Origin: Eledone cirrhosa
Taxonomy: Eukaryota
Length of the DNA: 64,000 nt
Assembly (NCBI GenBank): GCA_964016885.1
Contig: OZ024740.1
Span: 349,742,001 to 349,806,000 of the forward strand
Direction of reading: 5' to 3'
The translations under genes were made by a program, and so were the position numbers. Position 1 is the stretch's first letter. Every line of letters starts with the position of its first letter. Below, piece after piece: positions 1,053-50,064 of the stretch. The notes under the pieces are model-generated. The model made no database searches. It was not told where the DNA came from and was given only the letters and a program-made list of their open reading frames with translations.

Positions 1053-1237
1053 GTTAAGTATTGCCGAAGGAAAAGCAAAGGAAAAAAGAGTGCTCTATGT
1101 ATAAAACAGAGCTATTTAATTAGAAAGTGAACACACAATATATAACTACTCCATTACCAAAGGTTTCAGGGCCCTAGATAATATTAACATAATAATGGAG
1201 TAGTTATTTATACATTTTGTTGTTCACTTTCTAATTA
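1053..1237. mobile_element. Hairpin cassette in (TA)n with 3' half of a hammerhead (GAAA CCUUUGG UA AUGGAG on minus); relative at 20374-20510
   Basis: Inverted arms ~1118-1156 / ~1193-1237; same tail and arm sequence recur at 20374-20510; similar to the complete motif at 27165-27238. Confidence 0.6.
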
Positions 1238-1458
1238 TATATATATATATATATATATATATATATATATATATATATATATATATATATATATATATAT
1301 ATATATATATATATATATATATATAAGCAATGAGTTATCTAATTTGTTGGTTATTCAACAAATTTAGTTTATAACAGATTAGAAGCACTCTACAAGACTT
1401 TCTGGAGGATAATATGAATAATATTAATAAATGGAAACTATCTTTATAAAACCACATT

Positions 1459-1654
1459 TATTTTATTATATATATTTCAAGGATACCAACATTTTTGGTA
1501 CGCACTCATCAGATGAAATACAAAAGTTCTGTTTGAACTCAAAACGCTAGGTTCTAGTTTTGGATATGTCACTATCTGTAAAACAACTTTTGTATTTTAT
1601 CTGATGAGGTCGTATCAAAAATGTTGGTACCCTTGAAATATATATAATAAAATA
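1459..1654. ncRNA. Divergent pair of type I hammerhead motifs (minus 1459-1520; plus 1593-1654) in inverted repeat ~1419-1693
   Basis: Plus copy: UAUUUUAU-CUGAUGA-stem II (GUAUCAA/UUGGUAC)-GAAA-UAUAUA-UA-AUAAAAUA; stem I pairs over 8 bp. Confidence 0.75.
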
Positions 1655-1734
1655 AATATGGTTTTATAAAGAAAGTTTCCATTTATTAATATTATATATA
1701 TATATATATATATATATATATATATATATATATA

Positions 1735-1920
1735 CGTTATTCCGGGTTGAATCGGAAGTAACCACAGTAAGTAAGGTACTCAATACATAGCAGAGTATAA
1801 CAGTTTTAATATAGATGAGATTCCACAGGACCAGAACTGTTTCACTCACTAGAAATCATCAGGAATCCTGATGATTTCTAGTGAGTGAAACAGTTCTGGT
1901 CCTGTGGAATCTCATCTATA
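1735..1920. mobile_element. Perfect palindromic cassette with hammerhead-like cores (CUGAUGA-UUUC-N4-GARW-GAAA) in (TA)n; family copies 29821-30034, 44175-44367, single arm ~36403-36550
   Basis: Inversion centre ~1865; near-identical copy at 44175-44367; stem I partner weak or removed by the inversion. Confidence 0.7.
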
Positions 1921-45256: not shown

Positions 45257-45314
45257 AAATCTGAGGATATTTCTGACTGGACACCTTCCCGGCGGAAAGA
45301 AATTTTGTAATCTT
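45257..45314 (+). ncRNA. Degenerate hammerhead-like motif
   Basis: CUGAGGA-UA-UUUCUG..CGGAAA-GAAA-UUUUG-UA; stems I and III weak. Confidence 0.4.
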
Positions 45315-48300
45315 TCATCCATGAATACTAATCATGTTTTACAGGTTTTGAAGGTTCTCGATATCGTAGCTATTTGTAGTTTATGAATTAAGGAGCTCTT
45401 TTTTTCTCCACAAATCCAAATTCAGCCATATTTTGGTTCAGACGAGTTGGTATACATTCCGGAGCTCCAATAATAACTGTTTCTACTTTAGGCACAAGGC
45501 CAGCAATTTGAAGGGGAGGGGAAAGTCGATTACTGGTGTTTTATTTTATCGATCCTGAAAAGATGAAAGGCAAAGCTAACCTCGGCGGGATTTGAACTCA
45601 GAAAGTAAAGGGCTGTAACTTTATACTGCAAAGCATGGTGTCCGACGCTCAACCGGTACTGCCAATCCACTGCCCTTCAAAACAATAATTATAAGACATT
45701 TAGAAAGCCCAATGGAATGCTTACTTATACAACTGTCAGTTCTCGCTCCTAACCATAGTCTTTAAGAGCCTGCTCAAAAATATAAGTAGAAGAATATCTA
45801 ATCTCTATTCCAATAAGGGTATTTATGATAGTGCTAACTCCTACTCTAACGATGCCTCTAGAAGCGCGTGGATTTAAGGATAATATTAGTTACACCATCA
45901 ACCTAGGATCCACTACGAAGGAATGGCGATGAAATATCATCTAGTCCTGCCCACCCACTTCGTTAAACGTTAAAACTAACATAGGTAAATCCTTGCTCAC
46001 GCTGGTACATACAAATTTCCCTACTAGTTATAGGTATAAGAAACCGTTTTATAGACATAACCTGAGGATTAGTTTTAGCTCCTAATTTTTAAAGTATAGT
46101 TTTACTTAAGCCTGCGCCTTATAGCAAGGTAGGGCGCTATTGTACGAATGATTCATGTTCGCTAAGTGGAGTCTGTGAAATAGAAATTATTGCATATATG
46201 GCGGAAGTCAGGTCAGCCGACCCAGGCTACACCAACTGCTTAAGGTTGGTCTAACGGGAGGGCAATTCAAGACCAGATATCATAACCATACCACCTTTTA
46301 TAGAGACTGAGAAAAGCGAAATTCTGGGAAACTCTCTAGATATATCTTCTACAGAAAGATCTGTTAACTACCAGGAAGATTTTGAAAAAATACAAACACC
46401 AAGCATCGAGTACTCTGGTGCATTACGGTCCACCTGGTTCCTTACCACACTTTCTTTGTTAAGTTACCTTAAATAGCAACTACACAGCCATTTCTATTCT
46501 CCATATATTTCATCATATTTTTCGCTGTGACCATTCTTCTCTTCCCTTCTACCTTCCTATTTCGCCACTTTCTACTCTCACCCTCTTTCTTCCCCTCCCT
46601 TTCTCCTTATCTACTCTTACCCCACTTTCTTCCTCCCCCTTTCTCCCTCTCACTTTCACCCTCTCGTCTGACCGTTTAGCAGTTCTCTTCTCACTTACAA
46701 CTGCGGCGATCGGACGTGTGTCTTTTCTCGCGATTACTCGAACTTAAGTTCTTTTATCGAGTTGTCTTGGATTTCCTACCTATAGTTGCTCGCACGTTGC
46801 TCGGTTTGTATTCCCACTGCATTTTAAGTTACCTTAAATAGCAACTACACAGCCATTTCTATTCTCCATATATTTAATTGTGTGTGTATATATATATATA
46901 TATATATATATATATATATATATATATATATATATATATATATATATATATATATGTGTAATATAGTTGTGTGTGTGTGTGATGTGTGTGTGTGATGTGT
47001 GTGTGTGTGTGTGTGTGTGTGTTAAAAACCGGTTGGATAATGAGTATCAAACTTTAAAAATCTAAGTACTGGGATTAATATGATTGACCACAACCCTTCA
47101 AGGCCAATGACTGAAAACAAGTAGAAGAGTAAAAGTACACACATACACACAGACACACACGCGCGCACACACACACACACATATTAAGCGATAAGCTAAT
47201 ATATATCTTCATTGTACTTTTATTTGGTTTGTTGTTTCCGTTTACTTTTTGCTCACACACACACACACACACACACACACACACACACACACACACACAC
47301 ACACACACACACACACACACACACACATATATATACGCCACCACACGCGCACACACACGCCACTACACGCACATATAGCATATGTTAGGAAGTGGTAATT
47401 TTCTTGTTGGTGATGATGATTGGGCGGGACTAATGAGTGGGCAGGCAAAGTGTGTGATAGTAATGAGAATGTGTGGAGATGGTGAAAGCAGAGATGGTAA
47501 TGGTAGCGGTGGTGATGATGCTCATGATGATGATGATGATGATGATGATGATCATGATGATGATGATGGTGATATTCATGATGAGGATAATGGTGATGAT
47601 GATGATGATGATGATGATGTTGATGATGGCAGGATAGAACAGTACATAAATAAACAAAGAAATGAACGAATGAAAGAATGTAGTGATAAAATTATATCCT
47701 AAAATCTTAATTGTTTACATTATAGCTATATACTATTTATATTCTAGGGTCGTTTCAATCATAAACATAGAAGTATTTCAATCTAATACTGGACTATGTT
47801 AACCTTGTTGGTTTAGATGTGGTTGCTGGCTGGTTAAGTGGCTATTAAAGTACTTGGGATCCTCGTAAGAGAAGAGTGAGTGGGTATAGAATGCTTTCTA
47901 ATTTTGGCTCAAGACCAGCAATTTGAGGGTGAGGGCAAAGTCGATTAAATCAACCCCAGTGCTTGACTCCTATTTTATTTTATCGACAACGAAAGTATGA
48001 GAGGCAAAGTTCACCACGGCAGGAATTCAGTCAAGGATATAATGTATGTATGGTCCTCCGTAACTCCTGATAGAATCGTAACGGCGCCGTAACGACATAC
48101 GGCGATTCTTGGGCACTTTAAACCTGGTGGAGCCCATCCCTCTCCAAGCCTGAGTACAGCAGATTTCTTCCAGAGAAAGATAGAAAGAGATATCGAGGAC
48201 GAATCGACCCCAATACTTGACTGGTACTTTTTTTATCGACCTGGAAATGATAAAAGGCAAAGTTGACCTCGGCGGGATTTGAACTCAGGGAGCAGAGAGC

Positions 48301-49502
48301 CGGAAGGAATACCATAAAGCATTCTATCCGAAGTTCTAGCGACTCTGCCTATTCGCCGCCTAGGATATAAATAACCAGAACTAAATACCACGAAGCATTA
48401 TATCCAATGCTCTAATGATTATGCCAATTCACCGCCTTGGCAGGGGGCACAGAAAGTTAGTTTATACAGTAAGACGTTTGTGAGCGTTGGTCTTGAAGTC
48501 GTTCAGTCTCCTTTGGTTTAATTAGTATCACAGTCGTCCAGTATAAAGCAGTATGCGTGATTCAACTCCCGTGGGCGGCTCTGTTGGCTTTCATCTTAGG
48601 CGGATTGCCGCTCATCACGGTTGCGTGATCAGCGGCAATCCGCAAAACTCAGAGTAGCAACAAAGTATAATCTTAAGAAAATAAATATGTAATATTCGCT
48701 AATTTGGAATTGATCACTTCCCCTCGTGTTTGTAGACCGAAACACACACACACACACACACACACACACACACACGTATAAATGTTGTCTGACCCTGTGA
48801 TAAAGAGGTGAAACTCCAGAGTAACAAGACTCACCACTTAGCCTTAATAAAATGAATATGTATATGTAAATGTGTGTGTATATATATATATATATATATA
48901 TATATAATTGGAAATCAGTAAAATCGAATCTCTGGCGGTTTGCAAGTGAATTCGGCCTACTTATATGAAATGATGAGTTAGCAAACCACTCGATAAGATA
49001 GGTCCTTAGAGTAATAACATACGTTTAAATAGCTTGACAAATCGAACATTGTGGTAGGCTAAACTAACACACAATATATATACCAGAGCAACGATAGAAC
49101 TAATCAGGTTGAGAATATATATATATATATATATATATATATATATATATATATAAATATATATATATATGAAAAGATTCAGAACCCCGACGGCTGAGCT
49201 CCAGCCGTTTCCACAGCTAGATCTGAACAGGACCACCTGGTATCTTACCACACCCTCTTTGTTTTATATATATATATATGTGTGTGTGTGTGTGTGTGTG
49301 TGTGTGTGTGTGTGTGTGTGTGTGTGTGTGTGTGTGTGTGTGTGTGTGTGTGTGTGTGTGTGTGTGTGCGTGCGTGCGTGCGTGCGTGTGTGTGTGTGTG
49401 TGTGTGTGTGTGTGTGTGTGTGTGTGTGTGTGTGTGTGTGTGTGTGTGTGTGCATGTAGAGAGAGAGAGAGATAAGTATGTATATATATATATATATATA
49501 TA

Positions 49503-50064
49503 TAGATAAATCTACCAAGAGTTTACGGTAGTGTCCAATCCGTATGAAGAACTCAATGTAATCCGGATATCATGGAAAGAAGAGATGCAATGAAAAATCA
49601 CTTTCGGTGAAAGATAAACGGAATACAGAGTCAAGATAAAATATTAAAAAAATAATGAATAAAACAATGAAACAGTTCCTTATATTAAACAAAAAAAGTT
49701 CATTATATAACGATCGTTTCTGGGATATATATGTGTTAGAATTGGCATGTATATTTAACAGATCTATGTACAAAATTATACAAAATTATACAAACTATCA
49801 AAATTAAATATACATACCAACTCATATATATGCCGTCTTCAGAAATAATCATTATTTCTGAAGACGGCATATATATGAGTTGGTATGTATATTTAATTTT
49901 GATAGTTTGTATAATTTTGTATAATTTTGTACATAGATCTGTTAAATATACATGCCAATTCTAACACATATATATCCCAGAAACGATCGTTAAATAATGA
50001 ACTTTTTTTGTTTAACATAAGGAACTGTTTCATTGTTTTATTCATTATTTTTTTAATATTTTAT
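49503..50064. mobile_element. Hairpin cassette with two giant-stem-II hammerheads (minus 49700-49848; plus 49849-50000)
   Basis: ~213-bp near-perfect arms meeting at ~49849; CUGAAGA 49858-49864, GAAA 49980-49983. Confidence 0.85.

Follow-up and report, generated by a model that had tools for sequence, protein, structure and literature searches.

A short motif that recurs in a 64,000-nt stretch of the Eledone cirrhosa genome (the window; the assembly comprises 3.0 Gb) is the 3' strand of a small bulged hairpin and not a linear word. The window is rich in dinucleotide microsatellites, and a sequence-only reading had listed 12 sites at which an ATWGAGTRC-like motif stands near the tail end of repeated cassettes; all 12 were confirmed in position and orientation. 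The same hairpin is present in the 5' untranslated region (UTR) of coding retroelements that appear to belong to the Hydra clade of Penelope-like elements (PLEs). In these elements and in their short non-coding derivatives it likely marks the point at which the reverse transcriptase (RT) starts copying, a role suggested by analogy with a PLE studied in vitro.

The hairpin can be written as NCUC-Y-(upper stem and loop)-R-(U,N bulge)-GAGN. It consists of a lower stem, in which NCUC pairs with GAGN; two bulged nucleotides, U and any second base, on the 3' strand; an upper stem of 2–9 pairs closed by Y-R; and a variable loop. The 9-mer takes in the closing base, the bulge, the 3' strand of the lower stem, and two further bases. 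Its upstream complement tracks it, with ACUC accompanying GAGU and GCUC accompanying GAGC, and the base that follows is U or C according to whether the motif opens with A or G; both variable letters of the motif covary with the upstream strand. This pairing is also evident in a set chosen blind to the stem, comprising 78 sites picked by 3' motif and microsatellite distance alone from the window and from an independent sample of the genome (400 kb from ten other contigs, at round coordinates). The matching upstream 5-mer (ACUCU, ACUCC, or GCUCU) occurs at 20/36, 13/23, and 10/18 of these sites and a non-matching one at 3, 4, and 1, giving 43 matching versus 8 non-matching sites, or 15 versus 3 when each cluster contributes one site (41 in all). 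A column pair that played no part in selection (9-22) is paired in all 21 family representatives (AU 10, GC 8, GU 3). G-U pairs are more frequent than A-C pairs (16 to 4 and 6 to 1), an imbalance that suggests a fold of the sense strand.

A covariance model built from the 21 family representatives has 54 matches at E≤1 in 464 kb (window plus sample) and recovers 7 of the named sites. In 43 of the 54, a microsatellite begins 34–67 nt past the last paired base (80%, versus 5.4% of random positions), while in 31 an inverted-repeat arm ends at most 45 nt upstream, mostly 0–24 nt. Rfam returned no family at the hairpin positions at gathering score or E≤0.5. A separate group of hairpins with the same shape, flanked as acgGCUC..GAGCuaa, was also seen (L006:1293-1322, L029:8580-8609, and L013:4-27).

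Position is a stronger signal than bare motif counts. Exact ATWGAGTRC occurs 8 times in the window (2.80 expected; at least 8 in 2 of 100 shuffles) and ATWGAGYNC 15 times (7.87 expected; at least 15 in 1 of 100 shuffles), and at 10 of the 12 named sites the motif lies 46–68 nt ahead of a (TA)n/(CA)n junction. Among the 154 flanks of the 77 merged dinucleotide microsatellites in the window, 12 carry the loose motif pointing to the repeat, ten of them at 46–70 nt and the others at 27 and 92 nt; sites 27789 and 35709, at 55 and 56 nt from their junctions, are absent from this test because their (TA)n is shorter than the cut-off. The sample provides 950 further flanks, in which 9 of 11 ATWGAGTRC matches fall 46–60 nt from the junction. 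The looser RTHGAGYNC falls at 31–75 nt in 35/44 cases, versus 12/33 for its reverse-complement control (11/16 versus 6/17 with one flank per crude cluster). The positional enrichment that the sequence-only reading had suggested looking for is thus present both in the window and in the independent 400 kb. A blind scan for positionally enriched 7-mers did not single out the motif (the best related 7-mer, GTTGAGT, ranked 17 with 5 occurrences versus 0.89 expected); the signal therefore needs a degenerate pattern.

The 12 named sites represent eight families, with 1776 grouped with 44216 and the diverged 29988, 27789 with 46405, and 35709 with 49549. Nine of the 12 sit in short elements of 183–560 nt inside (TA)n or (CA)n. 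These share a layout in which a long inverted repeat runs from the 5' junction and is followed by a few to about 25 unique bases and then by the unique, motif-bearing tail, which reaches the 3' junction. Compared between families, the 45 nt that follow the motif show 0.44–0.71 identity, versus 0.54 ± 0.06 (maximum 0.69) for shuffled sequence, which bears out the earlier claim that the tails are otherwise dissimilar. Two named sites are weak: 46405, which is 5'-truncated and has lost the upstream strand, and 36453, where no stem can be detected and the surrounding 150 nt lack a microsatellite. For family A, a first look across the genome gave at least 1891 candidates, the scored copies being 89–100% identical. 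All nine additional family A copies share their start and end bases and lie in (TA)n (the query itself contained some TA).

The coding partners of these elements were recognized from a sample locus (L036) of a family we call H1, in which the hairpin lies ~185 nt ahead of an open reading frame (ORF); 20 further H1 copies place the hairpin, a second copy of the motif, and the start of the ORF in a single contiguous element. A protein search returned relatives of ~700 aa on 2–3-kb contigs. Coding copies in the E. cirrhosa genome, found by a single-protein search, include many uninterrupted ORFs of 713–719 aa with the hairpin on the sense strand, in the 5' UTR, ~150–185 nt before the ATG. The tail of the family E element in the window matches the 5' UTR of a second coding family, H2 (714 aa), and a CUGANGA..GAAA core of the kind seen in the window elements also occurs upstream of the first hairpin in H2.

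The Hydra clade has been characterized by a short element with one ORF that codes for an RT and, C-terminal to it, a GIY-YIG endonuclease, by RWK, a change of DKG to DKT, a CxCX5C linker, CxxC plus CxH, an endonuclease core lacking the CCHH motif, a canonical hammerhead in the pseudo-long terminal repeat (pLTR), and insertion into (TA)n (Craig et al. 2021, PMC8557442). In a regular-expression test, RWK, DKT, CxCX5C, and CxxC..CxH were each found in 26/26 ORFs of at least 650 aa, as was Y[RV]DD, and a GIY..YIG-like pattern was found in 25/26; two other PLE families of this genome are of the DKG type and lack the Hydra-clade marks. The RT region is 24% identical to that of another PLE of the genome (E 3e-6), and a Pfam search of the coding partner gave no match. 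By these motif marks, the H1 and H2 coding partners are predicted to be Hydra-clade PLEs with RT and GIY-YIG domains, resembling the published C-terminal endonuclease-positive (EN+) members in RWK, DKT, CxCX5C, (TA)n insertion, and candidate hammerhead-type cores upstream. They differ from that account in the hairpin: the main text and one supplement file of PMC8557442 note the tail and the (TA)n bias and mention no hairpin or stem-loop. PLE ORFs fetched through PF01541 (L023–L032) were also considered as carriers and were rejected, as they have no such hairpin at their ends and belong to other, DKG-type families. Judged by sequence, the "unrelated cassette families" of the sequence-only reading are all derivatives or parasites of one PLE clade with the same 5'-UTR hairpin, and they share the motif because the hairpin module is shared by descent.

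The hairpin is also present in other organisms, usually in duplicate ahead of the gene. We compared 78 loci from other assemblies, with proteins 42–65% identical, and the covariance model found 124 matches, 117 of them on the ORF strand, with a match in 69 of the 78 loci. Two matches 55–72 nt apart occur in 23 loci, and in 38 of the 50 loci with an upstream match, the match nearest the ATG ends 8–41 nt ahead of it. In an alignment fitted to the model, 56 sequences close with a CG pair and 40 with UA.

It is quite improbable that the motif acts as DNA, that is, as a recognition or cleavage site through which the GIY-YIG endonuclease homes new copies beside old ones, producing tandem or inverted arrays. 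Compensatory changes and sense-strand G-U pairs are unexpected for a double-stranded DNA site, and the nine further family A copies, like most matches, lie in plain (TA)n and not beside older copies. Two observations do fit this reading. The tail of Penelope from Drosophila virilis is needed for endonuclease recognition of a plasmid target, as cited in PMC11167929, and in other organisms the 3' half (GAGCACUCU) is more constant than the remainder.

We give very little credence to the motif being a functionless relic of common descent or the chance recurrence of a short word. Every carrier does trace to one retroelement clade, the blind 7-mer scan is silent on the motif, and the exact 9-mer also occurs out of context at 26378 and 4360, all of which speak for this reading. 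However, the hairpin has persisted, with compensatory changes, in tails that are now no more alike than shuffled sequence, it is kept before the gene in the 69 comparison loci noted above, and its distance to the microsatellite is enriched well beyond that of random positions.

The hairpins coincide with where insertions end. Insertion ends are of two kinds: site 1, a few nt 5' of a first hairpin (hairpin 1), and site 2, a few nt 5' of a second (hairpin 2). In H1, 3' ends lie 3–7 nt before hairpin 1 in L094, L095, L096, and L036, and at the second site, 77 nt further on, in L093; the outer ends of upstream inverted arms lie at site 2 in L077, L081, L095, and L096. For H2, genome-wide exact-word matching gave 1076 site-2 ends in (TA)n versus 151 read-throughs. 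Site-1 ends, 6–16 nt before hairpin 1, number at least 422 forward-strand places, with 658 read-throughs; on the reverse strand the count is 1429, an overestimate owing to overlapping matches. In the other assemblies, all five informative loci, which show both the 5' UTR and a 3' end within (TA)n, end either 5–11 nt before hairpin 1 (L109 and L169) or 3–7 nt before hairpin 2 (L116, L129, and L152). The tail is the stretch between site 1 and site 2, containing hairpin 1, and the motif lies ~45–70 nt from the tail end because copies end at site 2, before hairpin 2, with hairpin 1 inside the tail. The fixed spacing that had been taken as the sign of a cis signal is real; it arises from copies ending before a second hairpin that is left uncopied.

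In two full-length H1 insertions, L095 and L096, one end falls at site 1, and the upstream inverted arm has its outer end at site 2. Apparently, a single event uses a different start site for each of its DNA ends. At G000:C2:169702652-169703590, at least 5–6 matches recur with a 183-nt period, and H2 5'-UTR words run through site 2 into the region of the second hairpin; this run may be a retrozyme-like tandem array and a possible template source.

In both H1 and H2, a GCUC stands 2–6 nt after site 2; in the minimum free energy (MFE) fold its partner is the GAGC of the second motif, with an insert of 62–66 nt between them. Hairpin 2 of this genome's coding families is thus predicted to be split by a long insert, as in family D of the window, which is the weakest step of the argument. 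We had previously considered that hairpin 2 is degenerate in this genome (GCCC..GAGC) and unrelated to site 2, on the basis of a score of 3.2 bits, an MFE of 0 for the short stretch, and 0 ends before GCCC versus 112 read-throughs. That reading was dropped once the GCUC 2–6 nt after site 2 was paired with the second GAGC.

In vitro, the Anolis PLE Poseidon has two internal start sites for reverse transcription, and its tail spans the interval from one to the other (Frangieh et al. 2024, PMC11167929). We favor an internal start in the Hydra-type elements because Poseidon shows internal initiation, two sites, and use of both DNA strands. The elements described here are alike in having two discrete 3' ends tens of nt apart, a one-sided tail, a location near the pLTR/ORF junction, and AT-rich targets; both DNA strands are apparently used, which fits the L095 and L096 fold-backs with one end of each kind. 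They differ in that both sites precede the ORF, in the 5' UTR, at a spacing of ~70–110 nt, and that each is followed within a few nt by a conserved bulged hairpin. The Poseidon start sites fall in an AC-rich stem-loop 111–118 nt inside the ORF and 30–40 nt apart, with no conserved hairpin pair described (PMC11167929), and neither "hairpin" nor "stem-loop" occurs in the three supplement files searched.

We regard as evenly balanced the fuller proposal that the paired bulged hairpins are an RNA address for this telomerase-related RT, each setting one start a few bases upstream, with the two ends of an insertion using one site each. In this scheme, each RNA hairpin would be bound by the protein of the element, which would use the cut (TA)n target as primer and begin cDNA synthesis on the UA-rich bases immediately upstream. 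One DNA end would use site 1 and the other site 2, yielding a fold-back insertion with a one-sided tail, and a copy primed at site 2 would carry hairpin 1 in its tail. Copies that end at site 2 lack hairpin 2 and therefore may be unable to repeat the site-2 start. The suggestion of the sequence-only reading that the motif is a cis signal for RT near the 3' end fits all of these findings, with three amendments: the signal is a base-paired hairpin and not a linear word, the families are related through one PLE clade, and the spacing follows from the uncopied second hairpin. Its part in starting the copy is argued from the likeness to Poseidon.

Alternatively, the hairpins could be signals for RNA processing or ribonucleoprotein (RNP) assembly, with reverse transcription starting at the RNA 3' end; the "3'-end formation" also mentioned in the sequence-only reading belongs here. 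We consider this unlikely, although covariation shows that an RNA or single-strand fold matters and not what its job is, and a place in the 5' UTR 8–41 nt before the ATG would also suit translation control. Non-coding derivatives without an ORF retain hairpin 1, so translation control is not the sole role. Moreover, the ends lie 5' of the hairpins, so a cleaved RNA would lose its defining signal, and the 3' end of Poseidon RNA can be moved without shifting the start (PMC11167929).

Several points weigh against the hairpin as a start-site mark. Single hairpins fold weakly (−3.6 to −7.6 kcal/mol; z-scores −0.65 to −2.4), and the case rests on covariation. Of the alignments behind it, A2, A4, and A5 were fitted to the model and are biased towards it, and 2 of the 8 pairs in A1 were imposed by selection. 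The lower stem is nearly invariant in other organisms (GC in 95/97), where recognition of sequence and of shape are indistinguishable. The (TA)n at every junction blurs the exact end by up to 4 nt. The long-range hairpin 2 of H1 and H2 rests on MFE folds with non-significant z-scores (−1.36 and +0.30), and this long form is not detected by the covariance model (3.2 bits). If hairpin 2 were required for site-2 starts, the reaction would be closed to daughter copies, and a few master or tandem sources would have to account for thousands of copies. Finally, the analogy is loose, as Poseidon starts inside an AC-rich stem-loop within the ORF and not upstream of a hairpin.

Table 1. Motif carriers, hairpins, and other features of the window
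Feature	Position	Strand	Details
Family E element in (TA)n	1053–1237	-	Arms 1117–1237; tail 1053–1116; motif 1090–1098
Family E hairpin (GCUCUGU..AUAGAGC)	1087–1115	-	Covariance model 29.9 bits
Family F element in (TA)n	1326–1695	-	Arms 1418–1695; motif 1385–1393 (GUAGAGUGC)
Family A element, copy 1	1735–1921	-	Perfect palindrome 1809–1921 with hammerhead-type cores; tail 1735–1808
Family A copy 1 hairpin	1773–1799	-	Motif 1776–1784; 26.9 bits
Family A element, copy 2	44175–44366	-	Arms 44242–44366; hairpin 44213–44239; motif 44216–44224; 26.9 bits
Family A' element, diverged relative of A, ends in (CA)n	29841–30035	+	Arms 29841–29951; hairpin 29972–29999; motif 29988–29996; 27.0 bits
Family B element in (TA)n	27743–27931	-	Imperfect arms ~27823–27931, exact core 27839–27914
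Family B hairpin (ACUC-UACU..AGUA-UU-GAGU)	27786–27817	-	Motif 27789–27797; 27.5 bits
Family B 5'-truncated copy	46405–46460	+	Motif and tail only; 0.84 identity to B tail; no hairpin upstream strand, no terminal microsatellite
Family C element in (TA)n	17499–17728	-	Arms 17566–17728 with CUGAGGA..GAAA cores
Family C hairpin (ACUC-GUCC..GGA-UU-GAGU)	17534–17561	-	Motif 17537–17545; 15.7 bits, E 0.63
Family G element, between (TC/TA)n and (TA/CA)n	30147–30386	-	No palindrome found
Family G hairpin (ACUCU-GCUC..GAGC-AU-AGAGU)	30191–30223	-	Motif 30194–30202; 26.7 bits
Family D element, copy 1	35662–36190	-	Arms 35796–36190; hairpin 35710–35792; motif 35709–35717
Family D element, copy 2	49505–50064	-	Arms 49636–50064; motif 49549–49557; hairpin as copy 1; tail 0.98 identical to copy 1
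Isolated motif (AUUGAGUCC)	36453–36461	-	~65 nt downstream of CUGAUGA..GAAA core (36524–36546)
Additional hairpin, not among the 12 sites (GCACUC..GAGUGC)	43752–43781	+	28.4 bits; 63 nt ahead of (AC)n
Additional hairpin, not among the 12 sites (GCUC-UGGUU..AACCA-UU-GAGC)	20175–20208	+	25.7 bits; 85 nt ahead of (AT)n
Inverted repeat with 280-nt arms, 92% complementary	18535–19186		CUGAAGA..GAAA cores on both arms (18772–18796, 18925–18949); no adjoining hairpin-model match
Most canonical-looking hammerhead core of the window, CUGAAGA-AGGGC-UUAU-GCCC-GAAA	30619–30642	-	Beyond the microsatellite bounding the 30147–30386 element
tRNA-like stretch, probably a tRNA-derived SINE	17416–17473		Directly after the terminal (TA)n of family C; 28.1 bits, just below the tRNA gathering score
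tRNA-model match, probably a tRNA-derived SINE	58540–58611		43.9 bits; starts in the spacer and enters the second arm of inverted repeat 58290–58715
56-nt satellite	8464–11657		57 copies, 96% matches; inverted repeat on flanks (8031–8258, 15693–15920)
GC-rich stretch (up to 61% GC)	30700–34600		Strong GC skew; several long minus-strand open frames; no match in Pfam
LINE remnant, Exo_endo_phos fragment	38656–39291	-	
LINE remnant, RVT_1 ORF then DUF6451	56150–58256	+	

The families of the window differ in how well they preserve the hairpin (Table 1). In family F, the stem at site 1385 has one mismatch (CCUCC in place of the ACUCC of its relatives), and there is no covariance-model match at E≤1. 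The family D hairpin has the usual lower stem and UU bulge with ~50 nt inserted in the upper part; it is not detected by the model, and its MFE fold pairs GACUC with GAGUU. Site 36453, with no complementary upstream strand and no model match, is probably a decayed member.

The hammerhead descriptor CUGANGA-N7-17-GAAA, named in PMC8557442, has 13 matches in the window versus 1.11 expected, and the carrier arms hold cores of this type, while Rfam reported no hammerhead in the window at gathering score or E≤0.5. Several known element parts were tried for the motif and rejected. It is not part of a hammerhead, as the cores lie 40–100 nt upstream in the arms, no fit by hand to helix I, helix III, or the cleavage triplet was found, and Rfam has no hammerhead there. 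Nor does it mark Helitron/Helentron ends, since there is no 5'-TC or CTRR-3' terminus and there are no terminal inverted repeats. Pol III A and B boxes do not match the motif, and the 5' UTR of a coding element contains it too.

Among known systems, animal non-LTR (long terminal repeat) retrozymes are short non-coding hammerhead repeats whose tandem units give rise to circular RNA (Cervera and de la Pena 2020, PMC7229834; Li et al. 2026, 10.64898/2026.07.22.740005). The elements described here are likewise short non-coding repeats with hammerhead-type cores and PLE dependence. Unlike the head-to-tail tandem units of retrozymes, those of the window are single fold-back insertions into microsatellites with a one-sided tail, and the text of the preprint (10.64898/2026.07.22.740005) does not mention a tail, hairpin, or stem. 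PLE RTs are the sister group of telomerase RTs (PMC8557442). The sequence-only reading knew of no description of the motif, and we likewise found no published description of the hairpin in the full texts searched, a search that lay outside subscription papers and Repbase notes.

Partner long and short interspersed nuclear elements (LINEs and SINEs) share 3' stem-loops, which stand at the RNA 3' end and are copied, and telomerase RNA has template-flanking helices. Like both, the bulged hairpin is a small RNA structure beside the copied region that the RT would recognize. In contrast to the LINE/SINE pairs, copying would start inside the RNA without taking in the hairpin that adjoins the start.

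PLE copying is the least understood major mechanism of retrotransposition, and the Poseidon study defined no RNA signal. The hairpin is supported by covariation and coincides with both insertion ends, and it recurs in the coding elements of many organisms as well as in a very large number of non-coding copies; scaling 54 matches per 464 kb to 3 Gb gives a rough estimate of a few hundred thousand hairpins genome-wide. It can serve as an annotation marker for the ends of Hydra-type elements and of their parasites. The start-site hypothesis can be tested by mutation, and it explains both the one-sided tail and the fixed motif spacing. If it is correct, the hairpin would be the first defined cis element for PLE retrotransposition and a compact, portable handle with which to program what the enzyme copies.

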